Below, one piece after another: positions 11,833 to 28,322 of a DNA stretch of 64,000 bases. The DNA comes from Clostridiaceae bacterium (GTDB taxonomy: Bacteria; Bacillota; Clostridia; Acetivibrionales; DUMB01), in NCBI GenBank assembly GCA_012840535.1, contig DULF01000095.1:9069-73068 (forward strand), read 5' to 3'. The position numbers and the translations under genes were made by a program. The notes beneath the pieces are model-generated. The model did not search any database and was not told the origin of the DNA. It saw nothing but the letters and a program-made list of their open reading frames with translations. Numbering within the stretch: the first letter of the stretch is position 1; each line of letters starts with the position of its first letter.

Positions 11833-11849
11833 TCGCTTGTTATAACCTG

Positions 11850-13721
11850 TTATCTCTGATCGCTGATGTTTGCGTTATTGTTTTCAGCAGACAGTTGATC
11901 TATATCTTCATAAGGCGGTCCCATAGTAGTTCCGGGAAGGAGAGCAATATCGACTTCATTGGGGGGCGTACCCCAGGAGTTTCCGAAAAATGTGGTAAAA
12001 GCACGGTCAACGAGGAATCCGCCTTTTGTGTTGTAAACCACATTGTTATTGATGGCACCAGTTGTGTCAGGATTGATATACATTCCGGTCCTCAGGGAAT
12101 AAAAGGTGTTACCCTCCAATAGGACGTTTTGAGTATTCACCTGCGATACAACTGCCCGGTTCACAATCCAATTGTCCATCGGTGGCGGCTGCTCAGGCCC
12201 GTAAATTGTATTTCCAATAATCTTTACATTAGGCGCGCCAATCTGGATGAACTCTCCTACATAAGGCTGGTCGCTGGTCATGGTTAATCCCTGGACAGTT
12301 GCGCCGTTGCCTGTAACCAATATGGGAATAATACCTGCCTTAAGGAGAATCTCCGCACCCGGTTCACCGAGCAGTGTCATTTCCGCTTTGTTCACATTGA
12401 TTTGTGTTGTTACCTCATAAGTGCCGGCTCCAACATGAACTGTCCCACCGGGAGCTACCGCAGCAATACCTTCAGAAATGCTTCCAAACGGATGCGCAAT
12501 ACTTCCGTTTCCTCCCACGCTGCCGGCCTTTACACGAATGTTTTCAGGGTCCACCACTTCATTTACAGCAAGGTCAAGTGCTTGCTGCAAAGCAGCCACT
12601 GATGGATATCCCAGATCAGGGCGGTTTACCAGCAAGGATTGAAGCACTATATCCTGTACTGTTGTACTGAGAGCATTAAAACCGTCAAGATCCAGGCCAA
12701 GAGCGGGATCGGTAATTGCTGCCCGCATTTGAGTAATATCCTGTGCGCTATTGACGGCATCAAGCTGTGGATCTGTAGTTGTCGCTGCACCAATTTTCAA
12801 AATCATGATTGATGCGCTGACCCCGGTTTCTGTTCCTCCAGCGGCATTATCAAGGGTTACATCGCCCGCGCTGGTATGATTCCTCAGGGTTATTTGATCA
12901 CCTGCAGCAGCGTTGATGATTACCATTCCGGAATAACCGTTATTTGCCGTGCTGGTTCCGTACGTGCTTCCAGGTACAGGATTGTCATTCTGGTACAGCG
13001 TAAACTGATTGGGTTCCGCACCGGTTACAGTATACCAGACCGCATAAGTTCCTGCGGAATCAATGTTAATAGTGGCTGTGTTTATATCGTGGCTGATTCC
13101 GAGCAAAGCGCCGTTTCTGTTAAAGGTAACAGAACCATCTACCGGAACTGTCTGATTGTCTGTGTTATAGATATACGCATACGGATTTCCCATTGGAGGT
13201 GGCGGTGGGGGTTCCGTATAGGTAATCACCAGCTTCGGGAAATACGGTTCATATACGATATTATTTGCACCAAACTGTACCAGGGTTTCCCCGTCCGGAT
13301 TCGTCAATGCAATTCCAAAGTTGTCATGAGTACCGTTCAGCCACTCATTCACAAGGGTTGTAATATCAATTCCCACAATCGTGTACAGATCCGATGTATT
13401 GATATTAATCTGTGAAGTTGTGGCGGTAAAGGATGGACGAGTATTGTAAGTTACAGTTTGTGCGTCAAAAGGACTGGTTACTCTGTTTACAATAACAGGG
13501 CTTGGATTTTCGCCGGTTTTCACAATCACGGATAACTGCAGCACCGCACTGTCCACACTTGTTACTGGCAGATCCGGCAAATCAATTTCCATAAGAGCTA
13601 TACACTCTGAAAAAACCGGATCCTGGCCAACATACATCAGCGGGTAAAAGGAAAAATTGTTTGATGGCATGGAAGAAGATACAAAGGTTGTATCAGGTAT
13701 ACCAACAGATATTGTCGGCAT
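11850..13721 (-). CDS. Chimeric surface-type protein: DNRLRE-like beta-sandwich + poly-Pro linker + BclA-C-terminal/C1q-like domain + right-handed beta-helix domain; no signal peptide
   Basis: - The N-terminus carries DNRLRE-like marks (SSMPSNNFS, IDLPDLP, SAVLQL, VTYNTRP, DITTLVNEWLNGTHDNFG).
- A PPPPPP linker follows.
- The next segment, SAGTYAVWYTV...LYQNDNPVPGSTYG...AGDQITLRNH...SASIMILKIG, resembles the BclA/C1q jelly-roll.
- The C-terminus, GGTVHVGAGTYEV...TLLG...VQGLT...IIGNTIYG...LLEGNTFY..., is beta-helix-like. Confidence 0.65.
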   Translation of the reverse strand: MPTISVGIPDTTFVSSSMPSNNFSFYPLMYVGQDPVFSECIALMEIDLPDLPVTSVDSAVLQLSVIVKTGENPSPVIVNRVTSPFDAQTVTYNTRPSFTATTSQININTSDLYTIVGIDITTLVNEWLNGTHDNFGIALTNPDGETLVQFGANNIVYEPYFPKLVITYTEPPPPPPMGNPYAYIYNTDNQTVPVDGSVTFNRNGALLGISHDINTATINIDSAGTYAVWYTVTGAEPNQFTLYQNDNPVPGSTYGTSTANNGYSGMVIINAAAGDQITLRNHTSAGDVTLDNAAGGTETGVSASIMILKIGAATTTDPQLDAVNSAQDITQMRAAITDPALGLDLDGFNALSTTVQDIVLQSLLVNRPDLGYPSVAALQQALDLAVNEVVDPENIRVKAGSVGGNGSIAHPFGSISEGIAAVAPGGTVHVGAGTYEVTTQINVNKAEMTLLGEPGAEILLKAGIIPILVTGNGATVQGLTMTSDQPYVGEFIQIGAPNVKIIGNTIYGPEQPPPMDNWIVNRAVVSQVNTQNVLLEGNTFYSLRTGMYINPDTTGAINNNVVYNTKGGFLVDRAFTTFFGNSWGTPPNEVDIALLPGTTMGPPYEDIDQLSAENNNANISDQR

Positions 13722-14025
13722 GAATTAATTCACATCCTTTCTTTTACTTGAAAGTTAATTTTTTGCTATGTAAACGCGCCTGTAAAGCGGATAACTTTCA
13801 GTTTACATAATTACCCGCTAACCATCTTCCTGTATAAACATTATATTCATTAATTCATGAGATGTTGCATATACTGTCATCATTTATAAAAAATATTATG
13901 TTAACCTCATCTCCCGTTGAAATATGCAAATGTAACATTACATAATCAGTTTGCATATAGTATTATACCAAACCAATTTAAGCATTTTTTTGCTCGAATC
14001 ATCTATGCCATGGGAGGGTATTTTA

Positions 14026-15054
14026 ATGAACAAGGCGTTAATTACAGGAATCACCGGACAGGATGGCTCTTATCTGGCAGAATTTTTATTGGAAAAAGGA
14101 TATGAAGTACACGGACTTATCAGAAGAAGCAGTACGGATAATACTGAAAGGATCTGCCACCTGCTCGATGAACCTAAAAAGGTGACTTTGCATTACGGTG
14201 ATATGACCGATGCAGGAAGCCTTTGCAGATTACTGTACAGGATTGAACCCACCGAGGTGTATAATCTGGCAGCTCAAAGCCATGTGAAAGTTTCTTTTGA
14301 TATACCGAAATTTACGTCAGATGTAAATGCATTAGGCACTCTCATGTTATTGGACAGTATCCGGGAAGTGAACCCGGATATTAAATTTTACCAGGCTTCC
14401 TCCAGCGAACTGTTTGGGAAAGTAAGGGAGATACCACAGAATGAAAACACGCCGTTTTACCCGAGAAGCCCATATGCAGTAAGCAAGCTGTATGCATACT
14501 GGATAACGGTAAACTACCGTGAATCCTATAATTTATTTGCGTGCAACGGAATACTTTTTAATCACGAATCCCCCAGGAGAGGAAAAAATTTTGTTACAAG
14601 GAAAATTACAACCGGAATTGCTGATATATTGACTGGAAAATCAGAGTGCATATACCTTGGCAATCTGGAAGCAAAAAGGGACTGGGGATATGCAGGAGAT
14701 TATGTTGAAGCCATGTGGCTGATACTCCAGCAAGACAAACCCGACGACTATGTAGTCGCAACAGGAGAAACGCATACGGTAAGGGAGTTTTGTGAACTGG
14801 CATTCCGGTATGCCGGTATCAACCTCGTCTGGACAGGAGAAGGCTTAAATGAAAAAGGCGTGGATAAGGAAACCGGCAGGGAATTGGTTCGTGTCAGCAA
14901 AGAGTTTTTCAGGCCGGCGGAAGTGGATTTGCTGTTGGGGGATCCGACAAAGGCAAAAAACAAACTGGGATGGAAACCCAGGGTAACTTTTGAAGAACTG
15001 GTTGCAATGATGGTGAAGAGCGACCTTCAGGCCGCGGGAATAAATATGTATTAA
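14026..15054 (+). CDS. gmd: GDP-mannose 4,6-dehydratase
   Basis: [43 protein letters not shown] (YxxxK) and NHESPRRG are near-canonical Gmd motifs. A GGGAGGG RBS precedes ATG 14026; the ORF-track 5' extension is spurious. Confidence 0.95.
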
Positions 15055-15066
15055 GGAGGGATTTAC

Positions 15067-16002
15067 GTGGAAAAAAACAGCAGGATATACGTGGCAGGAC
15101 ATACCGGAATGGTTGGTTCGGCCATTGTCAGATGCCTTCGGAGAAACGGGTATGAGAATATTATCCAGAGGACCCATCAGGAATTGGACCTGACAAACCA
15201 GGCAGAATGCGAAAAGTTTTTTGAAGAGGAAAAACCGGAATATGTATTTCTTGCCGCCGCAAAAGTAGGGGGAATTCTTGCAAATGATACTTATCCTGCG
15301 GATTTCATAATGGAGAACATGCTGATTGAATGCAATGTGATCCGCAGCGCCTTTAAGAATAAAGTCAAAAAGTTGATGTTTTTCGGAAGCTCATGTATTT
15401 ATCCTAAATTATGCCCCCAGCCGATTAAAGAGAAATACCTGCTTACCGGTCCGCTGGAACCCACCAATGAAGCTTACGCTTTGGCAAAAATATCAGGAAT
15501 TAAAATGTGCCAGGCTTATAACAAGCAGTACGGCACCCGTTATATTTCAGTTATGCCGGCCAATCTATACGGCATCAATGACAGATTTGACGCTTTCAAA
15601 TCCCATGTAATTCCCTCCATGATGGTAAAATTCCACAGAGCAAAACTGGAGAACCGGCCTTTTGTTGAATTGTGGGGTACGGGCAAGCCTCTGCGGGAAT
15701 TTTTATATGTGGACGACATGGCCGAAGCATGTCTTTACCTTATGGAGAACTATGAAGGCAGCGAGCTTGTTAATATTGGTTCCGGGATGGAAATCAGCAT
15801 TAAGGAACTGGCTGAGATTATCCGGGATGTTGTAGGTTTTCAGGGAGAAATTGTATTTGATTCCACAAAACCTGACGGAACACCGCGCAGGGTTTTGGAC
15901 AATTCAAAGATTTCGGCAACCGGCTGGAAGCCGAAAGTGGACCTTAAAGAAGGCATCAGGATGGAATACGAATTCTACCTGAACATGCTTAAGAACAACT
16001 GA
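15067..16002 (+). CDS. fcl: GDP-L-fucose synthase (GDP-4-keto-6-deoxymannose 3,5-epimerase/4-reductase)
   Basis: It contains IYVAGHTGMVGSAI, GSSCIYP and YALAKISG. A GTG start follows a GGAGGG RBS. It lies directly downstream of gmd. Confidence 0.9.
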   Translation: MEKNSRIYVAGHTGMVGSAIVRCLRRNGYENIIQRTHQELDLTNQAECEKFFEEEKPEYVFLAAAKVGGILANDTYPADFIMENMLIECNVIRSAFKNKVKKLMFFGSSCIYPKLCPQPIKEKYLLTGPLEPTNEAYALAKISGIKMCQAYNKQYGTRYISVMPANLYGINDRFDAFKSHVIPSMMVKFHRAKLENRPFVELWGTGKPLREFLYVDDMAEACLYLMENYEGSELVNIGSGMEISIKELAEIIRDVVGFQGEIVFDSTKPDGTPRRVLDNSKISATGWKPKVDLKEGIRMEYEFYLNMLKNN

Positions 16003-16011
16003 GGAATCAGA

Positions 16012-16059
16012 GGGGACACTCCTTGACGTATAATACATCGGAAGAAAAGGAATGTCCCC
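16012..16059. terminator. Stem-loop between convergent fcl and the DivIVA-like gene
   Basis: GGGGACACTCCTT (16012-16024) pairs with AAGGAATGTCCCC (16047-16059), giving 13 bp with one mismatch and a 22-nt loop. Confidence 0.45.
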
Positions 16060-16064
16060 TTACA

Positions 16065-16553
16065 TTATTTCTCGGGAAGCAATTGTCTGAGAACATCCAT
16101 CTGGGCCTGGAGTAATGCTTCCGATTTCTTTTTGAAACTATATACTTCATTTCTGATTTCTTCATATTTCATTTGAATTTTGCGTGCTTCATTGTTAGCA
16201 TCATCAATAATTTTCTTTGCTTTTACCTCTGCTTCTTCCACGATGTTCTTCGCCTTTTCACATGCATTTGCCTTGATTTGCTCTGCAGTATGTTGTGCAA
16301 CCAGGATAGAGTGTTGCAGGGATTCTTCAAGTACCTTGTAATGCCGCACCGTCTCATTTAAAGTGGATATCTGGCATTTTAGCTCATGGATGGTGTTATT
16401 CATCTCCGTATAGTCTTCAATAATTTTTACCATTAGGTTATCTACCTGCTTCTTGTTGTATCCTTCAAAATAGCTTCTTTTGATTACAAGGCGGCTTAAA
16501 TCAGTAGAGGAGTAATGCACACTACCATCTCCAAAAACATATTCCTGTAACAA
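16065..16553 (-). CDS. DivIVA-domain protein
   Basis: The N-terminal motif F..GYNKKQVDNLMVKI is followed by a long coiled-coil (heptad-rich, E/K/Q). Confidence 0.7.
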   Translation of the reverse strand: MLQEYVFGDGSVHYSSTDLSRLVIKRSYFEGYNKKQVDNLMVKIIEDYTEMNNTIHELKCQISTLNETVRHYKVLEESLQHSILVAQHTAEQIKANACEKAKNIVEEAEVKAKKIIDDANNEARKIQMKYEEIRNEVYSFKKKSEALLQAQMDVLRQLLPEK

Positions 16554-16586
16554 TATTTATTCAGGATCCCGCCTGAATATCACATT

Positions 16587-17519
16587 TCATTTTTTTGACT
16601 GCCTTGCTCCTGTTGCCGGGTATAATGTTCCCATAGGGAAAATGTCCCTGTCTTTTGCCGGAATTTGAAAACGTGAAAAATCACGTGTTGAAATCATGTC
16701 GCAGACATCCATTAACCACATAAAATTGCTGATATAAGCATAGAATCTGGCTCTATCCAGGCATGCAGGAGAAATATTATAATATCTGTGTATCCGCTTG
16801 AGGAAATTCTCCCCCAGATGATCCAGAAGCATTCCCAGATCAAAGGCTGGATCGCCAAATCCTGCATTGCAGAAACCAATAATGCCGTTAATTCGTGCAG
16901 AAGCTTCATCAAACAGAATATGGCAGGGTGTTAAATCTCCGTGTATAATCACAGGCCTGAATTCAAAAAATTTTTCATTGTCTATGGCAGGTTGTATAAT
17001 TTGACGTAAATACTCTTTTACATAGTTCGAGCAATATGGGAATATTTTTCTTTGCACCGTTTCCAATTCAACCAGCCATTCTTCCCTTGTCCGGTTCATT
17101 TGGGAATTATTGATTTTTACATACTCTGCTTTTTTTACCGGAATGTTATGCAGCTGGTGTAAAAAGACCGCAATTTGTTTTGCAACAGTATCCTGGGTGC
17201 GGTAATCCAGTTTAAGCAAGATATTCCGGTAAAGTGGCGAGCCCTTTATATACCGGCGCATGGATATATTTTTATCAATCAATTCCGCTTCCGGCAAAGG
17301 CATATCAATAAAATTCTGAATGAAGCGGATCACATCCGCTTCATTTCTAAGGTAAAAAGTGCTCCAGTCATATTTCGCAAATTTAAACACTACCTCGTTA
17401 TTTACAATAACGATATCGCTATAACTCCCGTCGGAGTTATTAAATTCAACTTTTGACAGGCTCATTTGTGGACATTTGCTCTTTATTAATTCAATATATT
17501 TTAGTTCATTGGAGTTCAA
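16587..17519 (-). CDS. Phosphotransferase-enzyme-family (APH/ChoK/CotS-like kinase fold) protein, atypical active site
   Basis: The catalytic-loop-like IIHGDLTPCHILFD is followed by GIIGFCNAGFGDPAFDLG. A Gly occupies the position normally held by the metal-binding Asp of the I-D-F/W motif. Confidence 0.65.
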   Translation of the reverse strand: MNSNELKYIELIKSKCPQMSLSKVEFNNSDGSYSDIVIVNNEVVFKFAKYDWSTFYLRNEADVIRFIQNFIDMPLPEAELIDKNISMRRYIKGSPLYRNILLKLDYRTQDTVAKQIAVFLHQLHNIPVKKAEYVKINNSQMNRTREEWLVELETVQRKIFPYCSNYVKEYLRQIIQPAIDNEKFFEFRPVIIHGDLTPCHILFDEASARINGIIGFCNAGFGDPAFDLGMLLDHLGENFLKRIHRYYNISPACLDRARFYAYISNFMWLMDVCDMISTRDFSRFQIPAKDRDIFPMGTLYPATGARQSKK

Positions 17520-17570
17520 AAATCATCCCTCCTCTTCCTTGGAAAACAACCGGCTAATATAAAAATTGGT

Positions 17571-18530
17571 TCAATATAATAGTTTGATATTTGTTTCAGG
17601 CCAATCCTTAAGCCGCATCACCATATTGGACAGGCTAGAATAACCGTTGCCGATAAAGAAGTCACACTGTGAAGCCAGGTATGTGTCCTTTATGACTTCA
17701 ATGGTATCCTTGATCAGCTCCACTCCTTTGTGCCTCTTGTTTGGATAGGTCAGAAGGCAAGTGGGCAAACGCTCTTTTAAAGGACGTTTTTTGCTGTCAG
17801 TATATAAAAGCATGCCGTTTGCGCCGTATAGTTTTTTGAAATCTTTCAGTATTTTTTTGGAGTCAGTTATTAAAAATACATGCCTGACGTTGTACCGTAC
17901 AATATACTGCCAGATAAAAGGCCTATAAAGCTCATTCAAATCATAAATCTGCGCCACTTCGTGCACAATGGCATTAGAACGGCAGTGAACCCCGAGTATT
18001 GGCTTTTCATCCCTGAAATCGGGAGTTGTATTGATGTATTTTTTTATTTCCCGTATTACTTCAGGTTTTGGTTTCAGATATTTGTCAAAAAGTTGCCGGT
18101 AAACCTGATAGGGAGTTTTCCCGAAAGACCAGTGGGACCTGTTGGTCCATGCCAATATGGAGCTCAGCGGATAATAAATGTCGCTGACAACAATATTTGC
18201 ATCGCTTTTCATCAGGTTTTTCAAGTCCCGGTATTCCATTTTAAACCTGTCGATGTCTTCTGCAAGAATATTCTCCGAATTCCATGTAGGCGGATAATAA
18301 GAATATCCTGGACGGATAATATCATGGACCGTAAAGTCGGAAACCGGTTCGAAAAAAAACTCGAATGCATTTGTAGCGATGGACTCGCTGTACAAACTTT
18401 CCATACCCCAATACACGACCGGAATCCGGTTGGTTAACTCTGCAGCAAGAAGCTGGCACATGACATGGTCCACATCGGCCCAAATGCTTTTACCCAAAGA
18501 TTTTATTAACAGATAACGATTCGTCTGCAT
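17571..18530 (-). CDS. Fucosyltransferase-superfamily-like protein, paralog 1 (NodZ/GT11/GT65-like motifs)
   Basis: The N-terminus LLIKSLGKSIWADVDHVMCQLLAAELTNRIPVVYWG parallels the G-x-G...R-x-L-V-x-W opening of NodZ/POFUT-type enzymes. Other motifs are LGVHCRSNA (a degenerate HxRxxD) and C-terminal KDTYLASQCDFFIGNGYSSLS. A GGAGGTG RBS is present. No TM segment or signal peptide is visible. Confidence 0.5.
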   Translation of the reverse strand: MQTNRYLLIKSLGKSIWADVDHVMCQLLAAELTNRIPVVYWGMESLYSESIATNAFEFFFEPVSDFTVHDIIRPGYSYYPPTWNSENILAEDIDRFKMEYRDLKNLMKSDANIVVSDIYYPLSSILAWTNRSHWSFGKTPYQVYRQLFDKYLKPKPEVIREIKKYINTTPDFRDEKPILGVHCRSNAIVHEVAQIYDLNELYRPFIWQYIVRYNVRHVFLITDSKKILKDFKKLYGANGMLLYTDSKKRPLKERLPTCLLTYPNKRHKGVELIKDTIEVIKDTYLASQCDFFIGNGYSSLSNMVMRLKDWPETNIKLLY

Positions 18531-19587
18531 ACGTATTCACACCTCCGTATAATTCAGGATATTCCAGCCTATGGCGGATTCTTTCCGATTTTCTTCTCCG
18601 CCGGTCCGCTCTCACACGTTTTTTGGCCAGCTTTATTTCATGCTTCAAATCCCTGTAGAAAAGGACAATATTGTTGTCGGGCCAATCTCTCAGTCGTTTT
18701 ACCGTGTATGATACATTGGAATATCCATTGCCTATAAAGAAGTCACACATTGTAGCCAGGTAGGTATCCTTGATGATCTCTATTCCTTTACGCCTTCTTT
18801 CTGAATAGTTAGTTAGGTGGGGAGCGTTTTTCGTGTCATAGATCTGTCCTCTTCTGCAATCGGTAAAGACCACCATCCGGCCGTACTTCTTCTGAAAATC
18901 GGCAAGAATCTCCTCGCAGTCTGTCAACAACAGGATTTTTTGAATACCGTACCGTTTAATAAATTCTTCTATTGTCCGATGATACCTTTTGTTCAGGTGA
19001 GTTAAGTTTTCTACTTCCCGTACCTTGTCGCCCCCGCGGATGTGAACCCCCAGCAGGGGTTTTGAGCCCTTCATGTGTTCATCGTAAAATTTCTGTATTT
19101 CTTCCTGGATATCTGGTTTTAATCTGATATATTTGTCAAAAAGGCACCGGTATATCTGGTGGGCAGTCATTCCGTATGCCCAATGGCTTTTAGGAATGTA
19201 AGGGATTATGGGGCGGATGAAGTAGTGGGTATCGCTTACCACCACATTGGCATCGCTGTTCATCATATCGCCCAGGTTCCTGTAAGCCCATGCCACTTTA
19301 TCCAAGTCTTCCACCGCCAGATTTTTGCCGTTCCATATAGGGGGATAGTAGGTAAAACCGGGCCGGTTTAAATCTTCCAATGTATAATTGGATACAGGTT
19401 CAAAATATAATTCAAAGGCATTTCCTTTAAAAGATTCGGAATACAGGCTGTTTGTTCCCCAGTAAACGACAGGAATCCGGTTAGTCAGTTCGGCAGCCAG
19501 CAATTGTCCCATTAGATGGTCCACATCTGACCAGAAACCGCAACCCCAGCTTTTAATAAGGAGAAATCGGTCAACTGTCAATTTCAT
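18490..19587 (-). CDS. Fucosyltransferase-superfamily-like protein, paralog 2
   Basis: It has the same architecture, with LGVHIRGGDKV (HxRxxD) and KDTYLATMCDFFIGNGYSNVS, plus a basic C-terminal tail (KKRVRADRRRRKSERIRHR). Its 3' end overlaps paralog 1 by 41 nt. The start is ATG 19587 or TTG 19596. Confidence 0.5.
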   Translation of the reverse strand: MKLTVDRFLLIKSWGCGFWSDVDHLMGQLLAAELTNRIPVVYWGTNSLYSESFKGNAFELYFEPVSNYTLEDLNRPGFTYYPPIWNGKNLAVEDLDKVAWAYRNLGDMMNSDANVVVSDTHYFIRPIIPYIPKSHWAYGMTAHQIYRCLFDKYIRLKPDIQEEIQKFYDEHMKGSKPLLGVHIRGGDKVREVENLTHLNKRYHRTIEEFIKRYGIQKILLLTDCEEILADFQKKYGRMVVFTDCRRGQIYDTKNAPHLTNYSERRRKGIEIIKDTYLATMCDFFIGNGYSNVSYTVKRLRDWPDNNIVLFYRDLKHEIKLAKKRVRADRRRRKSERIRHRLEYPELYGGVNTYADESLSVNKIFG

Positions 19588-20752
19588 CACCCCCAATGTG
19601 CAGTTTTTTCTTTATTGTGCTGTAAAGCTTTTTTACAAACTCCATGATTGAACGCAATATTTTTCTTTCCCTGGCTGTAATCATTCTTACATTGACGGGG
19701 TACTTGCGCTTTTCCCTTTGGCGGAAAAGAAGCTTGACATTTCCTTCAGGCCAGTCTTTTATCCGGTATATCGTCCGGGATAAACTTGAAAAATTGTTTC
19801 CTATGAAAAAGTCACACTGGGCGGCAAGATATGCATCTTTAATTGCCTCTACTCCACGCCTTCTTTTTACCATATGGTTTTCCATATTATATGCCGGTTC
19901 ATTGGCGGTTAACCGCTTACAGTCAGTATAAACAACTGAATCACCGTATGTTTTACGGTATTCCTCTACCACTTCCGCACTGTCGGTAAGGAGGAATATT
20001 CTTTTGATTGCATATTTATTAATCAACTTGCTGATTTCAGCATGATATTGCGTATTGGCTTTCAGCATTCTTCCCTTTCCTAAAAAGAAGTATCTTCTTT
20101 TCCGGTTTTTTGAATGCTTTGTCATATATTTTCCTCTGTTCCTGTACCAGTAGTGCTCTTCCACTATGTCTTTTCTTTCGTCAATGACCATGTTGTCTTC
20201 CTCTCTCCGGACATGCACGGCCAGCAAGGGATGCCCGTCCCCGAGCCATGATTGGTAAAACCCCTGCACCTCCATGAGGATGTCCCTTTTGACCCTTATA
20301 TATTTCCTGTAAAGGTAGCGGTAAATCTCCAGGGCTGTCATGCCATATGCCGCATTATTCTTTTTGATGAAAGGAATGATTTCCGATATTGAAAAATATA
20401 CATCTCCGACGATCACATTAGCGTCACTGCTTATAAGATCGCCGATGCTTCTATACATCCATGTATCCTTGCCGGTATCCTCCATCAGTAGATTGTCAGC
20501 GTCCCAGATGGGCGGATAGAAGGTATACCCGGGTTTGGTCAAATCGAAAATACTGTAATTGGATACAGGTTCAAAATACAATTCAAATCCGTTTGTATGA
20601 ATAAATCCGTTATGCAGACAGTGGGTCGGCCAAAAGACAACCGGTATACGGTTTGTGAGCTCAGCAATTAAAAGCTGACCCAGAACATGCTCCACATCAT
20701 ACCATAACCTGTAACTCCAAGGCTTGATTAACAGGAATCTGTCACCTGCCAT
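19571..20752 (-). CDS. Fucosyltransferase-superfamily-like protein, paralog 3 (with basic insertion)
   Basis: A GAGGTGA RBS precedes ATG 20752 (MAGDRFLLIKPWSYRLWYDVEH...). It contains LAVHVRREED, followed by a Lys/Arg-rich insertion of about 35 aa, then KDAYLAAQCDFFIGNNFSSLS and a basic C-terminal tail. Its end overlaps the start of paralog 2. Confidence 0.5.
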   Translation of the reverse strand: MAGDRFLLIKPWSYRLWYDVEHVLGQLLIAELTNRIPVVFWPTHCLHNGFIHTNGFELYFEPVSNYSIFDLTKPGYTFYPPIWDADNLLMEDTGKDTWMYRSIGDLISSDANVIVGDVYFSISEIIPFIKKNNAAYGMTALEIYRYLYRKYIRVKRDILMEVQGFYQSWLGDGHPLLAVHVRREEDNMVIDERKDIVEEHYWYRNRGKYMTKHSKNRKRRYFFLGKGRMLKANTQYHAEISKLINKYAIKRIFLLTDSAEVVEEYRKTYGDSVVYTDCKRLTANEPAYNMENHMVKRRRGVEAIKDAYLAAQCDFFIGNNFSSLSRTIYRIKDWPEGNVKLLFRQREKRKYPVNVRMITARERKILRSIMEFVKKLYSTIKKKLHIGGDEIDS

Positions 20753-20799
20753 GTAATGGTTCACCTCGCACTCTTTCCGTTTAATTCTTTTCTTCAAGT

Positions 20800-21861
20800 T
20801 CATTTTATGTATACCTGTTGCTTTTGGTGCCACCTGTTCCATTCAATGGTGCGAGCCAGGCCTTCACGGAAAGGTTTGAACGGCGGAAGAGGGAATTCGG
20901 TGCTTACTTTTGTAATATCAAGCTTTACCAGTTTTGGAGAAACCTTGATGTTCTGCAAGTCTTCTTTATTTGGGATTTCCTGAGACAATGCGCTTCCAGT
21001 CAGCAGACATATTTCTTCTGCTAGGGCGCGAATGCTTATGCTGTCCTTTCCTCCCACATTATATACAAAGTCTTTCCCGTAGAGCATTATATAAAGCAGC
21101 ATCAGCACGCTGTCGGCAATGTAGCAGAATGTCCTTACCTTGCTTCCGTCATCCAGCATCGTAATTTTTTTTTCATAAAGAGCCTGCCGCAGGAAATGAG
21201 CCAAGACCCTCTCATCCTTCAAACCGATGCCGGGTCCATAGGTCATGGAAATCCGCGCGATTTTTGCGTTAACCCCTTCAAAGTTTCTATAGGCAAAGCA
21301 CAAAGTTTCACCCATGCGTTTCGACTCAGCGTAGATCGCCCGTACATCCACTGGAGAACACAAGCCGGGGTAATCTTCGCTTGTGGGAACATGTTTTTCA
21401 TCGGGTTCGCCATATACTTCCGAGGAACTTAAAAACAAAAAAACGGCGTTGTCTTTTTTTGCTTTTTTAAGCAGCCTTTCGGTTACTGTTGTATTTAGGT
21501 GAATGGTCTCCAAATAGTTTTGAATAAATTTTTTCGGCTGGGCATAGGTCGCTCCATGGATAATATAGTCAGCCTTCACTTCAAAGCAATCGCAATCCGG
21601 CTTGATCAGATCCGTTGCAAAGAAGGCATAGCGGTCCTTGAAAATATCCTGCAGGTGGCTTCCGGGAGGACTTTTGCTGACAGCGGCAATGTTGATCCCG
21701 GCATTTTTGACGGTATTTGCAAGGTGGAGCATATATATCACATACGTTCCAATGAGCCCGTTTGCTCCTGTAATATAAACTGTTTTATCCCTTAGCGGGG
21801 TAAGATCGATTTTTTCAATATATTCAAGGCAATCTTGCTCAATAATCCTGTCCATAACCAT
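20800..21861 (-). CDS. NAD-dependent epimerase/dehydratase (extended SDR, nucleotide-sugar modifying; UXS/4,6-dehydratase-like)
   Basis: It contains VYITGANGLIGTYV (GxxGxxG), SSSEVYG and YAESKRMGE (YxxxK). Confidence 0.75.
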   Translation of the reverse strand: MVMDRIIEQDCLEYIEKIDLTPLRDKTVYITGANGLIGTYVIYMLHLANTVKNAGINIAAVSKSPPGSHLQDIFKDRYAFFATDLIKPDCDCFEVKADYIIHGATYAQPKKFIQNYLETIHLNTTVTERLLKKAKKDNAVFLFLSSSEVYGEPDEKHVPTSEDYPGLCSPVDVRAIYAESKRMGETLCFAYRNFEGVNAKIARISMTYGPGIGLKDERVLAHFLRQALYEKKITMLDDGSKVRTFCYIADSVLMLLYIMLYGKDFVYNVGGKDSISIRALAEEICLLTGSALSQEIPNKEDLQNIKVSPKLVKLDITKVSTEFPLPPFKPFREGLARTIEWNRWHQKQQVYIK

Positions 21862-21885
21862 CCTCTTTCCTTTTTTACAATATTT

Positions 21886-22929
21886 TTATTCTTTTACCAA
21901 CTTCACCGCTTCGGTGCAAATGTCCTCCGCAGTGGGATAAAAAGCTTTTTCCAGTACATCGCTGGTGGGTGTCGGCGTATCCGGGCAGCATACCCGTTTT
22001 ACAGGCTTCTTCAGCAGATGGAATGCTTTTTCAGCAGCAACGGCGGCTATTTCCGAAGCTACGCTTCCTGTTTTGCAGCCGGTGTCGGCAATCAGAAGCC
22101 TTCCGGTTTTTTCGACGGATTCCACAAGAATCTTTTCGTCGAAGGGCTTTAATGTCCGAAGATCTACAACCTCTGCAGATATGCCTGCTTGCTGAAGCTT
22201 TTCAGCTGCCTTCAATGCCTCCACAAGCATATAGGACACTGCCACAATGGTAATATCTTCTCCCCTGCGGTGAATAACGCCTCTGCCGATGGGAATGGAA
22301 TAAAGCTCTTCAGGAACATATCCGGTTGTCTTGTACAGCCATCTGTGTTCTACAAACAGAACAGGGCTGTTATCTATGATGGATGATATCATTAACCCTT
22401 TGGCGTCGTAAGGAGTGGCAGGGGCAACAATTTTAAGACCAGGAACATTCATCAGCATTCCCTGGATGCACTGTGAATGCTGAGCTCCGGATCCCCATCC
22501 CCTGGCGCTTATTGTTCTTACTACCAAGGGAACCTTTACCTGTCCGCCGAACATATAACACCATTTGGATGCGTGATTTACCAGCTGGTCAAAGGAAAGC
22601 AACAGAAAATCCATCCGCGCGTGAATGAGAATCGGCCTTAAGCCTGCCATTGCAGCTCCAGCGGCTATTCCGGTCAAAGAATTCTCCGCTATCGGAGTAT
22701 CGAATACCCTGTTTGCGCCGTATTTCTCTTTCAATCCCTTGGTGGTTCCAAAAACGCCCGCCACATCATCCACGCCTTCGCCCATGATAAACACTCTCGG
22801 GTCCCTTGCCAGCGATTGATCCATGGCTTCATGCAGCGCATCCCTGTAAGAGAGTATCCGATTACCCGTAAAATCGCCGGATATAAAAAAGTTATCAAGT
22901 TTTTCTACCTGAACTGTCGTCCAAGGCAT
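21886..22929 (-). CDS. TPP-dependent 2-oxoacid dehydrogenase E1 component, beta subunit-like
   Basis: It contains FIMGEGVDD..GVFGTTKGL, DTPIAENSLTGIAAGAAMAG and a transketolase C-terminal region. A GGAAAGGAGG RBS is present. Confidence 0.8.
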   Translation of the reverse strand: MPWTTVQVEKLDNFFISGDFTGNRILSYRDALHEAMDQSLARDPRVFIMGEGVDDVAGVFGTTKGLKEKYGANRVFDTPIAENSLTGIAAGAAMAGLRPILIHARMDFLLLSFDQLVNHASKWCYMFGGQVKVPLVVRTISARGWGSGAQHSQCIQGMLMNVPGLKIVAPATPYDAKGLMISSIIDNSPVLFVEHRWLYKTTGYVPEELYSIPIGRGVIHRRGEDITIVAVSYMLVEALKAAEKLQQAGISAEVVDLRTLKPFDEKILVESVEKTGRLLIADTGCKTGSVASEIAAVAAEKAFHLLKKPVKRVCCPDTPTPTSDVLEKAFYPTAEDICTEAVKLVKE

Positions 22930-23025
22930 GAAAACATCCTCCTTTCCAATAGACAGTACGAGTCATTTTCATCGCCAGTACATATCATTCCTGTCGTCAG
23001 AAAACCATTCTGCCGTCTCCTGTTT

Positions 23026-23991
23026 CTAGTCTGCATACACAAAATCCAGCAGTTCATCAGGTGAGGGTTTTGGAGAGTTCTGCGCAAAACTGAACGCCTC
23101 TTCTATCAAACCGTATATTTCCTCATCAATGTTTTTAATAAGCTCATCATTTAAAACTCCCATATTCTTTAAATATTCCGAGAACCGTTTTATCGGGCAT
23201 TTTGAAACCCAATAGTCATATTCCTCTTTCGGCCTGTAGCCTTCCCCTACATCATCCACCGTTCCGATATGCCCTTTCCACCTGTAAGTCAGACATTCAA
23301 TAAGGGTGGGGCCTTCGCCGTTCCGGCATCTTAAAATGGCTTTTTCGGCATAATCTGAAACTTCCAGCACATCATTTCCATCAATCTTATAGCCCAGCAT
23401 TCCGTAATTTTGCGCCCATTTGTAAATGTTGTCGTCCACCTGCCGTGCCAGCTGGTGCGAGTTGATGGCATAAAAATTGTTTTCACACACATATACTACA
23501 GGCAGCTTTTTCAGCGCGGCAAAATTCAGGCTTTCATGAAAGGTGCCTTCATCAGCAGCGCCGTCGCCGAAAAATACAACAGTTACCCTGTCATTTCCCT
23601 GAAGCTTTGACGCCAGAGCTGTGCCTGTTCCGAGCGGAATATTACCCCCGACAATGGCAGAAGAGCCAAGTATGCCCACATCCGGATCGACAAGATGCAT
23701 CGACCCGCCTCTGCCATACGCACATCCTGTTTTCCTCAGGTACAATTCAGCGATCATTTTTTTTATGTCGCCGCCTTTTGCAATATATTGGGCATGACTT
23801 CGGTGGGTGCCGAAAATGTAATCATCCTTACGAAGATGTATGCAGGCGCCTGCTGCCACCGCTTCCTGCCCGATGGACAGATGGATAGGCGTTTTGATTT
23901 CGTCATACTTGTATTCGTCATTGATTCTTTGTTCAATCAGGCGAATAAGACGCATGATTCTATACATTTCAATCAATTTGCTTTTTTCCAT
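23026..23991 (-). CDS. TPP-dependent 2-oxoacid dehydrogenase E1 component, alpha subunit-like
   Basis: It contains the TPP-binding motif GDGAADEGTFHESLNFAAL..PVVYVCENN, and YRWKGH. Confidence 0.8.
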   Translation of the reverse strand: MEKSKLIEMYRIMRLIRLIEQRINDEYKYDEIKTPIHLSIGQEAVAAGACIHLRKDDYIFGTHRSHAQYIAKGGDIKKMIAELYLRKTGCAYGRGGSMHLVDPDVGILGSSAIVGGNIPLGTGTALASKLQGNDRVTVVFFGDGAADEGTFHESLNFAALKKLPVVYVCENNFYAINSHQLARQVDDNIYKWAQNYGMLGYKIDGNDVLEVSDYAEKAILRCRNGEGPTLIECLTYRWKGHIGTVDDVGEGYRPKEEYDYWVSKCPIKRFSEYLKNMGVLNDELIKNIDEEIYGLIEEAFSFAQNSPKPSPDELLDFVYAD

Positions 23992-24010
23992 ATGTCATCG
24001 CTCCTTTCTG

Positions 24011-25000
24011 TCAATACAAGAGTTTGATCCTGTCGTCTTTCCATTCCTTTAATTCACTTATGGCTGCAGATACGTAAGAATATCCGTTGCCGATAAAGAA
24101 ATCACATCTTGCAGCAAGCCATGTGTCCCGGATTATTTCAAAACCCTTCAGTTTGTTATCCGGATATTCATGAAAATGGATCCCCTGGCCGTCCTTGTGG
24201 ACCCTTTTGCAATCAGTGTGAATCAGAAGTTCGCCATACCTTTTTTTATATTCTTCCAGGATTTCAATGCAGTCGGTCATTAAAAATATCCGTATACCCG
24301 GATTTTCTTTGAGAACCTTTTCTATCTCCGCGGCATACCTGCTGTTTAACTCGTGCAGGTGACGTACTTCCACAATTTTATCGCTGCTTCGGATATGTAC
24401 CGCCAAAAAGGAGGCACCTTTCATATGCTCTTCGTAGAAAGCATCGATAAAAGCCTGAGTCTCTTTTTGCAGGCGGATGTATTTTTGTATCAGACAGTAA
24501 AACAAATCCCTGCGGTTAAGCCCGCAGAGCGGATGCCACTCCGGTATCAAAGGAATAACCTTTTCCACATCTACATAGGTATCCCGGACACAAACATCAG
24601 CATTACAATCATGTAAGAGACAAGAGGTATGGGGTAATAGACAAATATTCCTGGAACAAAAATCGGTGTTTGTCTTCAGCAAAGGGCCTGTTTCCGCATG
24701 TTTACCGCCTTCGGGGAACATTGGGGCCGGATCAAGAATATTCCCGCTGTTCCAGCATTCAGGGCAATAGGAAAATTCTTCCTTCGCAAGATCATGCATG
24801 CTATAGCCTGATACCGGCTGAAAAAACTGCTCAAAGGCATTGGAACCATCGGACGAGGAATACAGGCTGCCTTTACCCCAGTATACAACGGGAACCCTTT
24901 TCATGATTTCCGCAACAAGCAGCTGGGTCAGGACATGGTGCATTTCGTTCCATAATCCCTGGCCTATTTCCCTTATTAATAAGAACTTTGTTTTTCCCAT
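24011..25000 (-). CDS. Fucosyltransferase-superfamily-like protein, paralog 4
   Basis: It contains FLLIREIGQGLWNEMHHVLTQLLVAEIMKRVPVVYWG, LAVHIRSSDKI and RDTWLAARCDFFIGNGYSYVS. It is separated from paralogs 1-3 by the SDR and E1 genes. Confidence 0.5.
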   Translation of the reverse strand: MGKTKFLLIREIGQGLWNEMHHVLTQLLVAEIMKRVPVVYWGKGSLYSSSDGSNAFEQFFQPVSGYSMHDLAKEEFSYCPECWNSGNILDPAPMFPEGGKHAETGPLLKTNTDFCSRNICLLPHTSCLLHDCNADVCVRDTYVDVEKVIPLIPEWHPLCGLNRRDLFYCLIQKYIRLQKETQAFIDAFYEEHMKGASFLAVHIRSSDKIVEVRHLHELNSRYAAEIEKVLKENPGIRIFLMTDCIEILEEYKKRYGELLIHTDCKRVHKDGQGIHFHEYPDNKLKGFEIIRDTWLAARCDFFIGNGYSYVSAAISELKEWKDDRIKLLY

Positions 25001-25024
25001 CCAATTCCCCCTGTATGTTAATTT

Positions 25025-26113
25025 TTAAAGCAGATCTTCATGTCCCTGTTTTTTCAGTTTATCCACAAGAATCTTAACCTTCTGGGACTCATTCCTGGGG
25101 CAAACCAGCACCTCGTCTTTTGTACCTACCACAATCATGTTGTTGACGTCTATCGTACAAATGGTGACATCTTTTCCGAATATAACGGAATTTGTTGTAT
25201 TGACTCCGATATGGCGTCCCATTACCCTGTTGCCTGCCGAATCCGTTTCGAGAGTTTTTGCCAGAGCATCAATACTGCCGATATCATCCCAGTCAAAGGA
25301 CGCCCTCACGGCATACAGGGAAGAAGCACACTTTTCAAGCACCCCGTTGTCGAAGGAAATGCTTTTAAGCTCACGGTAGGCTTTTTCAACTGAGGCTGAT
25401 GTTCCATCTTCCTCTTTCCCCAATGCGTCCGAAAGCTTTTCGTAATGCTCGGGAATGTGTTCCTTTATATTCCTTATAATGACGTCCATTGTGCCGACCA
25501 CTATCCCGCAGTTCCACAGGTAATCATCTGAGCGGACAAGCTCCTTCGCTACCTCAAGGGGCGGTTTCTCAATAAATTTCAACACAGGAGACACTTCAAT
25601 GTCTGCACTTGTCGCAGGTCCTACATGTATATAGCCATATCCTGTCGCAGGATATGTGGGTTTGATCCCGATAATGACAAGGCTGTTGAGTCGTTCAGCT
25701 GTGTCAAACGCCAATTGTAAAGCTTTTGCATAGCTTTCCGTATCTTTTACATACCCGTCTGCCGGTACAAAGCACAAAACCCCTTCCTTATACTTTTTCT
25801 TAAGCAAAAGCGTTGCATAAGCAATACATGCAGCAGTGTTTTTCCTCTCCGGTTCCAGCAATATATTCTCCTCCGGAATGCATTCACACTCTGCCCTTTT
25901 ACACGCTGTCTTTATTGTAATCTCCGACAAAAGCCTGTTTGTTACAATAAAACATTGATCAGGCTGAACAACCTTGCATAAACGTTTAATGGTCTGAACT
26001 AGGATTGAATGGCCGCCTTCTATGGGAATGAATTGTTTAGGGCTGGCTTCCTTTGAAATAGGCCAAAGCCTGGTTCCAGAACCACCTGCCATAAGTACAG
26101 CATATTTTTTCAT
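25025..26113 (-). CDS. manC: Mannose-1-phosphate guanylyltransferase (no isomerase domain)
   Basis: MKKYAVLMAGGSGTRLWPISKEASPKQFIPI is the signature N-terminus. An AAGGAG RBS precedes ATG 26113; the ORF-track extension covers the RBS. Confidence 0.85.
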   Translation of the reverse strand: MKKYAVLMAGGSGTRLWPISKEASPKQFIPIEGGHSILVQTIKRLCKVVQPDQCFIVTNRLLSEITIKTACKRAECECIPEENILLEPERKNTAACIAYATLLLKKKYKEGVLCFVPADGYVKDTESYAKALQLAFDTAERLNSLVIIGIKPTYPATGYGYIHVGPATSADIEVSPVLKFIEKPPLEVAKELVRSDDYLWNCGIVVGTMDVIIRNIKEHIPEHYEKLSDALGKEEDGTSASVEKAYRELKSISFDNGVLEKCASSLYAVRASFDWDDIGSIDALAKTLETDSAGNRVMGRHIGVNTTNSVIFGKDVTICTIDVNNMIVVGTKDEVLVCPRNESQKVKILVDKLKKQGHEDLL

Positions 26114-26350
26114 ATTCTTACACTCCTTAGTCAATGCATTCTGTAATTGCTGTGCCAGCGCCGGCTCACCGACGCCGGACTATGTACCTTCTGAGGAAAA
26201 CACAGTGTATTTTATATTATGTAAATTAAATGAATAAGGTTACTGTGAAAATATACGCACAGCTTGTATAAAGCTTTATGGGTAATTTTTTACAATGGAA
26301 GGCAACCGAGTCGAATGCAGGAATTTGAGACAATCAGGCGGAAAAGCAAT

Positions 26351-28294: not shown

Positions 28295-28322
28295 AAAAAA
28301 TCCCCTCCTTGAATATTGTTTA

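Follow-up and report, generated by a model that had tools for sequence, protein, structure and literature searches.

A conserved GDP-fucose gene cassette as a candidate spore-surface glycosylation system of endospore-forming Bacillota

Gene content and organization of the island

The subject of this study is an island of nucleotide-sugar and transferase genes at positions 11850-26113 of a 64,000-nucleotide stretch of DNA from a Clostridiaceae bacterium (contig DULF01000095.1 of assembly GCA_012840535.1, forward-strand positions 9,069 to 73,068; the whole stretch is termed the window, and all coordinates refer to it). According to a listing of open reading frames (ORFs) and scans with Pfam and NCBIfam, the island is situated between spoIIE (9145-11550) and spoVT (29567-30121), both on the minus strand. 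An earlier note, drawn up from the letters of this DNA alone, had read the island as an undescribed system for cytoplasmic, export-free glycosylation of the spore surface in the mother cell, and its gene list was borne out almost item by item by the ORF listing and the family scans.

On the minus strand, manC (25025-26113), encoding a mannose-1-phosphate guanylyltransferase without a phosphomannose isomerase (PMI) domain, is followed by fucT4 (24011-25000), the genes for the alpha (23026-23991) and beta (21886-22929) subunits of a thiamine pyrophosphate (TPP)-dependent E1 enzyme, a gene for an extended short-chain dehydrogenase/reductase (SDR; 20800-21861), fucT3 (19571-20752), fucT2 (18490-19581), fucT1 (17571-18530), a gene for a protein of the APH fold (16587-17519) and, lastly, a gene for a DivIVA paralog of about 150 amino acids (16065-16553, with the real start likely near 16520). 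The genes gmd (14026-15054) and fcl (15067-16002), which encode GDP-mannose 4,6-dehydratase and GDP-L-fucose synthase, are located on the plus strand and converge with the unit extending from manC to the DivIVA gene, and a gene for a 623-amino-acid protein (11850-13721, minus strand) diverges from gmd. Three mechanical ORFs are overlong and cover promoters: the real starts are M26 for gmd (14026, within an ORF that begins at 13951 and contains the gmd promoter), M31 for fucT3 (20752, within an ORF that extends to 20842) and the ATG at 26113 for manC. The fucT3 ortholog of Thermoclostridium stercorarium comprises 393 amino acids.

None of the island proteins contains a transmembrane segment or a hydrophobic N-terminus as judged by a 19-residue Kyte-Doolittle window above 1.65, a crude scan rather than a dedicated predictor. 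Moreover, in the first 47.6 kb or so of the window no phosphoglycosyltransferase, flippase, polymerase, chain-length regulator or ABC-2 exporter was detected by Pfam, and the sole transporter genes in this range are those of a CUT1-type sugar importer upstream of spoIIE. Both the absence of signal peptides and membrane segments and that of a priming transferase, flippase, polymerase or exporter had been claimed in the earlier note, and both claims stand within the reach of these scans.

GDP-L-fucose supply and the fucosyltransferase-like paralogs

ManC, Gmd and Fcl together represent the de novo pathway to GDP-L-fucose, so that the complete route from GDP-mannose claimed in the earlier note is confirmed at the level of family matches. 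Gmd scores 564 bits against TIGR01472 (cut-off 415), an equivalog-level match, and 509 bits against Pfam GDP_Man_Dehyd, while Fcl is recognized by Pfam Epimerase and reaches 486 bits against NF047922, slightly below the cut-off of 500. ManC is matched by the Pfam families NTP_transferase and ManC_GMP_beta-helix as well as by TIGR01479, the latter over the GMP part only and with 267 bits, below the cut-off of this bifunctional model, the PMI domain being absent.

The four fucosyltransferase-like proteins, of which fucT1, fucT2 and fucT3 form the core and fucT4 is accessory, are true paralogs with 31-49% identity, as the earlier note had assumed, and all of them keep the motifs HxR (H182/R184), TD and CDFFIGN..S..S. 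In solved GDP-fucose transferases, the arginine of the HxR motif contacts GDP. With respect to Pfam, fucT2 matches FUT8_N_cat (31.7 bits, threshold 27.6), fucT4 matches FUT8_N_cat (32.9 bits) and NodZ (32.1 bits, threshold 28.3), and fucT3 matches O-FucT (33.6 bits, threshold 31.5), whereas fucT1 scores about 19 bits, below all thresholds, and was placed by paralog and motif alignment. A fucT2 profile retrieved NodZ (E 7e-8), FUT8 (5e-6) and POFUT1 (7e-5) from the Protein Data Bank, and the top 50 Foldseek matches of the fucT2 model are all GDP-fucose transferases, with NodZ, FUT8, AtFUT1 and POFUT1/2 among the relatives by profile or fold. With Pfam scores on either side of the thresholds and a fucT2 model of moderate confidence, the proteins are assigned to the superfamily and to no CAZy family.

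NodZ and FUT8 (GT23), POFUT1/2 (GT65/68) and plant FUT1 (GT37) thus share with the island proteins the glycosyltransferase fold B (GT-B), the HxR...D arrangement and the C-terminal motifs, and they are the only solved relatives by both profile and fold. Identity to them is just 10-20%, however, and the island proteins are bacterial, soluble and paralogous, with a conserved arrangement as a triad. The constant co-occurrence of the transferases with gmd and fcl, the sole pointer to a donor, suggests GDP-L-fucose as their putative substrate. An exhaustive profile search of 1.84 billion proteins retrieved only 349 cluster representatives at E<=1e-30, and the transferase family is therefore small; many of these relatives carry an N-terminal extension of about 100 amino acids or are embedded in proteins of more than 1000 amino acids.

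Within the island, fucT2 and fucT3 alone possess a strongly basic, conserved C-terminal extension (e.g. KLAKKRVRADRRRRKSERIRHR; window 18490-18640 and 19571-19720), which in fucT2 is modelled as a long helix. This basic tail could bind the membrane, the coat or DivIVA.

Conservation, distribution and genomic site

The island proteins were mapped onto 20-kb neighbourhoods of homologous loci, and 63 loci from Bacillota were counted. The gene order [manC-(fucT4)-E1 alpha-E1 beta-SDR]-fucT3-fucT2-fucT1-APH-DivIVA, with gmd-fcl alongside, is conserved across about 60 of them. The triad fucT3-fucT2-fucT1 is present in all 63 loci, gmd in 55 (some loci end at a contig edge), the DivIVA gene in 54, with absences in Paenibacillus and Niallia, and the APH-fold gene in 46. 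The E1 alpha and beta genes occur in 37 and 36 loci, respectively, and are always accompanied by the SDR gene, and fucT4 is confined to loci with E1 and SDR.

The most conserved gene of the module is fucT2, whose orthologs are 55-88% identical across Clostridia and Bacilli and are labelled by NCBI merely as 'O-fucosyltransferase family protein'. Its carriers include metagenome-assembled genomes (MAGs) resembling Thermoclostridium, Desulfitobacterium, Caproiciproducens, Oscillospiraceae MAGs, Herbinix, Galacturonibacter, Lachnotalea, Paenibacillus and Niallia, as well as Ruminiclostridium cellobioparum, R. papyrosolvens, R. hungatei, R. sufflavum and R. herbifermentans. At the genus level, the carriers are known for endospore formation. 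Outside this group, relatives of the transferase family with 36-45% identity were found in Gammaproteobacteria, Alphaproteobacteria, Phycisphaerales, Saccharibacteria and Methylococcaceae MAGs (loci L061-L076), where they are present in single copy and lack the rest of the module, a few of them (L071, L074) adjoining gmd-fcl. The literature searched contained neither a description of the cluster nor expression data, and nothing relevant on fucose in spores.

The genomic site of the module is variable. In T. stercorarium, genes for E1 alpha, E1 beta, the SDR, three fucT proteins, the APH-fold protein, DivIVA, Fcl, Gmd and a 622-amino-acid protein lie beside ACT, PspC and prfC genes, about 6.5 kb from spoIIGA-sigE-sigG, a site different from that in the window. 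Of 58 further Bacillota loci, only two have this flank in common with T. stercorarium and none has spoIIE adjoining the module, and the spoIIE-spoVT site is seen in this window alone. Because the module resides at other sites in close relatives, the cassette moves as a unit, and the position between spoIIE and spoVT, from which the earlier note had argued, is not functional evidence. The G+C fraction is 0.42-0.47 across the island and the adjacent fucI and lacI-family genes (window 11000-29000), compared with 0.34-0.40 upstream and 0.38-0.40 just downstream, a contrast that fits a relocated cassette. Convincing flanking repeats or a nearby tRNA gene were not found at the island.

As for the flanks in the window, the minus strand between island and spoVT holds a lacI-family regulator gene, fucI and a strong intrinsic terminator after fucI (26364-26382, minus strand), which constitutes the upstream boundary of the manC transcription unit. 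The fucI gene (NF008220, 1138 bits) and the regulator gene (26474-29551, minus strand) are thus separated from the island by the terminator. They adjoin the module in no other locus, and the vicinity of catabolic fucI to an anabolic GDP-fucose island therefore looks coincidental. Past spoVT, genes for a PrsA-like peptidyl-prolyl isomerase, mfd, pth, prs and glmU constitute the usual Firmicutes neighbourhood. On the other side, upstream of the CUT1 importer, the plus strand at 975-6730 encodes a URO-D-like fragment, a ceramidase-N-like protein, a DUF3604 protein and a BadF/BcrA-type ATPase.

Apart from the module itself, the recurrent extra neighbours in the 63 loci are lineage-specific housekeeping or ABC genes. 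In R. herbifermentans (L077, 14201-17916), the module is extended by three genes, which encode an oxidoreductase of the GFO/IDH/MocA family, a hexapeptide acyltransferase and an aminotransferase of the DegT type. Four other loci (L033, L037, L039 and L047) contain homologs of the first two. The three genes constitute an acetamido-sugar branch, an indication of lineage-specific variation of the glycan. In Paenibacillus sp. URB8-2 (L078), a gene for a 74-amino-acid GerE-family regulator (1570-1794) is found about 4 kb upstream of a gmd-fcl-manC-fucT operon, and a second cluster with glycosyltransferase and epimerase genes is located about 4 kb downstream of it.

O-antigen and capsule loci typically combine a GDP-fucose pathway with several transferases, and the cassette might accordingly serve a polymer that is secreted or lipid-linked, for instance a capsule, an S-layer glycan or a wall polymer, with genes for priming, flipping and export at another place in the genome. 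In one Ruminiclostridium lineage, genes for an ABC ATPase and two ABC-2-like permeases adjoin gmd. These ABC genes are restricted to that lineage, however, and have a NatAB/YhaPQ-type look, and throughout the approximately 60 loci no priming transferase, Wzx/Wzy protein, exporter or other membrane protein is encoded at any conserved position. Given, in addition, that conserved promoters of the sigma-K and sigma-E type, as described in the next section, are unexpected for a vegetative envelope polymer, this explanation appears quite improbable.

Mother-cell promoter motifs at the operon heads

The published consensus of sigma-K comprises an AC at -35, a gap of 15 +/- 1 nucleotides from the 5-nucleotide -35 block and a -10 element of the type CATAnnnTA or CATATAAT, whereas that of sigma-E comprises an ATA within an 8-nucleotide -35 block, a 12-nucleotide gap and the same -10 element; a -10 sequence CATATTAT has been called canonical for mother-cell sigma factors in published work. 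The 200 nucleotides upstream of each module gene were scanned for AC-N16-17-CATAnnnT (sigma-K-like) and ATA-N13-15-CATAnnnT (sigma-E-like).

The motifs are concentrated at three operon heads. Sigma-K-like and sigma-E-like matches were obtained upstream of manC in 33 and 5 of 39 loci, upstream of fucT3 in 52 and 27 of 60, and upstream of gmd in 25 and 21 of 52, respectively, compared with 3.3% and 3.1% of random 200-nucleotide windows from the same loci (n=11,300). Before the internal genes such matches are scarce: neither type was found upstream of fucT4 (0/59), E1 alpha (0/35), the SDR gene (0/53), fucT2 (0/60) or fcl (0/53), and the corresponding sigma-K-like and sigma-E-like counts are 1 and 0 of 36 for E1 beta, 3 and 2 of 60 for fucT1, 0 and 1 of 46 for the APH-fold gene and 0 and 3 of 52 for the DivIVA gene. 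After collapsing the loci to 13 lineages at 80% fucT2 identity, motifs precede fucT3 in 8 of 13, manC in 9 of 12 and gmd in 10 of 12 lineages, and internal genes in 0-2. Between lineages the spacer sequence diverges, with the -35 and -10 boxes retained, and none of 14 homologous loci outside the Bacillota shows a mother-cell motif.

In the window, the sigma-K-like manC promoter ACCTTATTCATTTAATTTACATAATATA lies at 26213-26240 (minus strand), the sigma-K-like fucT3 promoter ACCAAAAGCAACAGGTATACATAAAATGA at 20800-20828 (minus strand), within the 3' end of the SDR gene, and the sigma-K-like gmd promoter ACATTACATAATCAGTTTGCATATAGTA at 13935-13962 (plus strand). The whole 64 kb contains seven strict sigma-K matches on both strands, two of which are the manC and gmd promoters. 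The motif upstream of fucT3 is positioned at -57 to -78 from the start in 52 of the 60 loci, and the gmd promoter of Ruminiclostridium-type loci, TCCATAAT-N12-CATATTAT, has exactly the canonical sigma-E geometry. In a scan of the sequence for sigma-70 promoters, sites were no commoner than in shuffled sequence. Upstream of the gene for the 623-amino-acid protein, a two-block motif, GYAACAT-N15-GAATATWATGT (13837-13868, minus strand), was recognized by eye in most Thermoclostridium-type loci.

Taken together, the motifs suggest that the cluster is probably transcribed in the mother cell under control of sigma-E and/or sigma-K. They agree with the dependence on these factors that the earlier note had expected, and of the new observations they are the strongest, albeit at the level of sequence.

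These promoters also bear on the possibility that the cassette glycosylates a secreted protein of vegetative cells in the cytoplasm, for instance a flagellin, a pilin or a serine-rich adhesin. Glycosylation islands for flagellins and adhesins are likewise cytoplasmic and flippase-free, and one source labels the fucT2 ortholog of T. stercorarium a tetratricopeptide repeat (TPR) protein, as is the case for some flagellin transferases. On the other hand, the promoters are of the mother-cell type, the loci inspected harbour no flagellar, pilus or accessory-Sec genes near the cluster, and Pfam detected no enzymes of the Maf, GT2-TPR or GtfA/B type. To this possibility we attach only a very slight chance.

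A candidate branched-sugar submodule

The E1 pair belongs to the pyruvate dehydrogenase (PDH) type. The alpha subunit matches E1_dh with 258 bits and contains an intact GDG-X27-NN TPP-binding motif at residue 142, and the beta subunit matches Pfam Transket_pyr and Transketolase_C as well as NF006667 (333 bits). E2 or E3 genes, as a 2-oxoacid dehydrogenase complex would require, are present neither in the window nor in any homologous locus. Instead, E1 alpha, E1 beta and the SDR form a constant trio across loci. The SDR is of the extended UXS/ArnA type (nucleoside diphosphate (NDP)-hexuronate decarboxylase or 4-keto-sugar enzyme), has the motifs GANGLIG, SSSEVYG and YAESK, and finds its best solved relative in human UXS1, a UDP-glucuronate decarboxylase (E 4e-39).

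PDH-type E1 pairs devoid of E2 and E3 have been described to place a pyruvate-derived two-carbon branch on NDP-4-keto sugars in the formation of paulomycose and eurekanate, and in the case of eurekanate the 4-keto acceptor is made by a UXS-type decarboxylase. The product of Gmd is a 4-keto sugar as well. By analogy, the trio would fit the logic of two-carbon branched-sugar biosynthesis, which would explain the orphan E1. The pair, called an orphan in the earlier note, thus has a precedent. The likeness to Plm8/Plm9, AviB1/AviB2 and EvdS6-type enzymes consists in an E1 pair without E2/E3 in a sugar cluster beside an SDR for NDP-4-keto sugars, and it was drawn from descriptions of those pathways. 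Those enzymes act on dTDP- or UDP-sugars in actinomycete antibiotic pathways, whereas the trio considered here is found in a Firmicutes cell-surface glycan context beside GDP-sugar enzymes.

The precedents just named, Plm8/Plm9, AviB1/B2 and the eurekanate pathway, all belong to actinomycete natural products, and one might therefore suspect a pathway for a glycosylated secondary metabolite. Yet no locus contains polyketide synthase, non-ribosomal peptide synthetase, aglycone, resistance or export genes, and it is the fucT triad, along with gmd and fcl, that is universal, the E1/SDR submodule being optional. Strong conservation across families and promoters of the sporulation type are, furthermore, atypical of secondary metabolism, and we give this suspicion hardly any credence.

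The APH-fold and DivIVA proteins

The APH-fold protein (Pfam APH, 73 bits) has its best solved relatives in APH(2'') enzymes (E 2e-21). The earlier note had described it as APH/CotS-like; the fold stands, whereas a reading as a CotS-like kinase was rejected, as there was no match to CotS, YsxE or YutH and NCBIfam returned only models of aminoglycoside, macrolide and peptide phosphotransferases. The window protein retains HGD and has IIGF in place of IIDFG, so that the metal-binding aspartate is replaced by glycine and the signature of an active APH-type kinase is lost. Most orthologs (loci L001-L060) share this glycine, several also lack the aspartate of HGD, and the R. cellobioparum-type group alone keeps IIDFG. 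Judged by these residues, the protein is probably not an active kinase and may rather be a pseudokinase or an adaptor.

The DivIVA paralog scores 115.8 bits against the Pfam DivIVA domain (cut-off 28), and its N-terminal region also matches GpsB, which serves as a docking adaptor for envelope-synthesis enzymes. The likeness to DivIVA/GpsB adaptors is thus made up of the DivIVA domain and the GpsB-matching N-terminus; in contrast to them, the cluster proteins form a distinct, tight subfamily of 150 amino acids (111 proteins at >=49% identity, that is, at least 49%) that occurs in the same taxa as the cluster, and no link to division genes was seen. Between the APH-fold and DivIVA genes, a hairpin TATTCAGG..CCTGAATA is located at 16558-16579 (minus strand), which could act in processing or in partial termination.

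The 623-amino-acid protein beside gmd

The protein encoded divergently from gmd combines three domains, namely an N-terminal CBM96/DNRLRE sandwich (residues 1-170, nucleotides 13212-13721; 54.5 bits, NF033679 111 bits) followed by a PPPPPP linker, a BclA-C/TNF-like jelly roll (residues 178-310, nucleotides 12792-13190; BclA_C PF18573, 46.7 bits, cut-off 38) and, after a helical linker (residues 311-392), a Pel9A-like right-handed beta-helix (residues 393-623, nucleotides 11853-12545). The assignments are based on Pfam and NCBIfam matches, an AlphaFold2 model (pLDDT 88.5), Foldseek and phmmer. The middle domain is closest to the C-terminal domain of F-BclA (PDB 9H38; TM-score 0.88-0.90 and 38% identity in Foldseek, E 3e-21 in phmmer), after which Foldseek ranks BclA of Bacillus anthracis (1WCK; TM-score 0.81), ExsFA/BxpB and then C1q/TNF domains. 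This substantiates the BclA/C1q-like jelly roll that had been noted from the sequence. The N-terminal domain resembles folds of carbohydrate-binding modules (CBMs; 8wab, TM-score 0.79; 7vbo, a CBM96, TM-score 0.70), and the beta-helix resembles GH87 enzymes and phage receptor-binding proteins.

The BclA_C domain is internal rather than C-terminal, and neither collagen GXX repeats, for which there is no Collagen match in Pfam, nor an N-terminal exosporium-targeting motif is present in the protein. In the absence of collagen stalk and targeting motif, the protein is not a member of the BclA family and shares the domain only. A variant with 61% identity (P0047) has collagen GXX repeats in place of DNRLRE, followed by BclA_C and beta-helix, which amounts to a BclA-like layout. 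The protein is 100% identical to one from a MAG labelled 'Clostridiaceae bacterium' and 76% identical to Cst_c15640 of T. stercorarium. As a further observation, proteins from Bacillales such as P0068 (Aeribacillus pallidus) and P0074 (Halobacillus halophilus), along with P0070, P0069 and P0076, share 54-68% identity with the half that comprises helical linker and beta-helix, which is unusually high for a comparison of Clostridia with Bacilli; P0068 and P0074 begin with a duplicated domain of about 120 amino acids without Pfam match (TTGPVV.DR...IYDLS.CPK).

With a DNRLRE hidden Markov model, a DNRLRE gene was found within 10 kb in 17 of the 63 Bacillota loci, in three arrangements: divergent from gmd, within the operon between fucT1 and the DivIVA gene, or upstream of manC. 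The gene within the operon replaces the APH-fold gene and carries a DUF6385 tail. Sigma-K-like motifs precede four of eight DNRLRE-family genes checked, stand-alone paralogs included. Two candidates for a wider link were discarded: the stand-alone paralogs of 360 amino acids occur in unrelated contexts, and a beta-helix protein encoded next to the module in Lachnotalea, considered as a domain-level co-occurrence, has a signal-peptide-like N-terminus.

More generally, Clostridia possess a family of intracellular DNRLRE/CBM96 proteins, many of about 360 amino acids and sometimes encoded in arrays of three, which all have a nearly identical N-terminus (MPTV..(L/I)..TTFVSS...NFSFYPL.Y) with 60-70% identity to the 623-amino-acid protein. 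Examples are found at 10001-11080 of locus L080, at 10001-11083 of L081 and at 6319-7452, 10001-11845 and 11980-13350 of L083, several of them with sigma-K-like motifs, and this family may comprise unrecognized spore-surface proteins.

In all probability, the 623-amino-acid protein belongs to the spore surface and has a functional tie to the glycan. How it is tied admits of two answers, one being that it accepts the glycan. The other holds that the cassette produces a spore-associated polysaccharide which the protein, with its CBM and PL9/GH87-like domains, anchors in the manner of a lectin or cleaves as an enzyme, or to which it is perhaps unrelated. The match of its N-terminus to CBMs and the similarity of its beta-helix to GH87 glucanases and to phage receptor-binding or depolymerase proteins speak for this second answer, as do its adjacency to the cluster, confined to one clade, and a promoter unlike those of the three operons. 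Against it stand the three independent arrangements in which DNRLRE genes recur next to the cluster or within it, a BclA-C domain that is typical of glycosylated exosporium proteins, and a content of Ser and Thr of about 20% in the N-terminal and BclA-C domains. We consider the second answer rather unlikely, albeit one to be reckoned with.

Relation to known spore-surface systems

The sps, cge, yfn and ytc operons of B. subtilis direct the synthesis of spore crust polysaccharides with rhamnose and legionaminic-acid-type sugars by means of GT2 and GT4 transferases. The cassette resembles them in combining nucleotide-sugar enzymes and soluble glycosyltransferases with a probable mother-cell expression of the sigma-K type and in the presumed decoration of the outermost spore layer without Wzx/Wzy or ABC export. 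Unlike the crust operons, however, it features GDP-fucose, a possible C-branched sugar and GT-B enzymes similar to NodZ, FUT8 and POFUT, and the crust operons for their part have no DivIVA paralog, E1 pair or DNRLRE/BclA-C protein.

In B. anthracis (BclA with rmlACBD and ant) and Clostridioides difficile (sgtA-bclA3), a spore-surface protein is encoded beside the genes for its sugar or transferase. The likeness to these systems is a BclA-C (TNF/C1q-like) protein beside sugar genes. In contrast to them, the 623-amino-acid protein has no collagen region or N-terminal targeting motif, its BclA-C domain is flanked by CBM-like and beta-helix domains, the adjacency is found in one clade, and GDP-linked sugars take the place of dTDP-linked ones.

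Among solved structures, the middle domain is closest to F-BclA (PDB 9H38; PMC12357932), which in B. thuringiensis forms the tip fibrillum of the endospore appendages termed F-ENA. F-BclA is expected to be glycosylated, with a transferase gene nearby, and putative O-glycan densities were reported on a clostridial F-ENA (PMC12357932). F-BclA has a collagen region at residues 19-720 and docks on F-ENA fibres, whereas neither a DUF4183 (F-ENA) gene nor a collagen stalk is present here. In summary, the cluster is distinct from the known systems in its transferase family, donor chemistry, DivIVA and APH-fold components and probable branched sugar.

A model for the cassette

The explanation we favour, and hold to be moderately probable, is that the island is a relocatable cassette of endospore formers. 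On this view, mother cells transcribe it during sporulation, and a spore-surface glycan rich in deoxyhexoses is built in their cytoplasm, without lipid carrier or exporter. RNA polymerase with sigma-E and/or sigma-K would start at the manC, fucT3 and gmd promoters, as the conserved motifs suggest. ManC, Gmd and Fcl, which belong to established enzyme families, would convert mannose-1-phosphate via GDP-4-keto-6-deoxymannose to GDP-L-fucose. By analogy with the Plm8/Plm9, AviB1/B2 and EvdS6 pathways, the UXS-like SDR would supply or process an NDP-4-keto sugar, to which E1 alpha/beta would transfer a two-carbon unit from pyruvate to yield a C-branched sugar, a submodule found in about 60% of the loci. 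The fucT3, fucT2 and fucT1 proteins, as soluble GT-B enzymes depending on GDP-sugars, are envisaged to act sequentially, so that a defined oligo- or polysaccharide grows on an acceptor, either a protein or a glycan, and the branched sugar may be the contribution of fucT4. The DivIVA paralog and the APH-fold protein would serve as scaffolds or adaptors and not as enzymes. In what is the least certain part of the model, the 623-amino-acid protein would probably form a trimeric spore-surface spike via its BclA-C/TNF-like domain and would either accept the glycan or, in view of its CBM-like and beta-helix domains, bind, anchor or trim it.

Several observations weigh against this explanation. The promoter motifs are sequence matches, the related loci in which they recur are not independent, and all evidence is in silico; sporulation of the carriers was taken at the genus level. 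The transferase family is not spore-specific, since it also occurs in non-sporulating Proteobacteria, Phycisphaerales and Saccharibacteria, and the fucT2 model is moderate, with a pLDDT of 69.8 and a TM-score of about 0.5-0.6 to NodZ. The island does not encode a UDP-glucose dehydrogenase, on which a route of the UXS type would depend. Clustering of the neighbouring ORFs of the 63 loci yielded no universal acceptor gene. Full-length orthologs of the 623-amino-acid protein adjoin the cluster only in the Thermoclostridium-like clade, the more distant homologs (52% and 44% identity) and the collagen variant P0047 having been found away from any such cluster, and in view of this limited adjacency its role as substrate is unproven. 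Moreover, the motif upstream of its gene resembles a mother-cell promoter with A instead of C as the first base of the -10 element.

The proposal of the earlier note, an undescribed and export-free glycosylation of the spore surface from the mother cell, is thus supported in silico by the promoters, the conservation over about 60 loci and the BclA-C fold, whereas the argument from position and the CotS label do not hold. The 623-amino-acid protein is a putative substrate, for which the domain of spore-surface type speaks and the linkage to the cluster in a single clade does not. A more specific version is tentative and, in our estimation, of rather low probability: a lipid-carrier-free relay of three relatives of POFUT, FUT8 and NodZ, organized by a private DivIVA and a pseudokinase at the forespore surface, would fucosylate DNRLRE/BclA-C proteins, with a C-branched cap made by the E1 enzyme in many species.

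Implications

Spore-surface glycans govern adhesion, hydrophobicity, dispersal, access of germinants and recognition by hosts and phages. To our knowledge, how these glycans are made has been worked out only in B. subtilis and the B. cereus group and to some extent in C. difficile, and we know of two-carbon C-branched sugars only from antibiotic pathways and a few Gram-negative O-antigens. If the favoured explanation is true, the cassette would constitute a third, chemically distinct spore-glycan system, based on GDP-fucose, in cellulolytic and environmental Clostridia, Paenibacillus and Niallia, and E1-dependent branched-sugar chemistry would extend from antibiotics to cell-surface glycans. 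Cultivable carriers exist in T. stercorarium and in Ruminiclostridium and Paenibacillus species. Likewise, functions would be assigned to a bacterial O-fucosyltransferase family, a DivIVA subfamily of 150 amino acids, a degenerate APH-fold family and the intracellular DNRLRE/CBM96 proteins.

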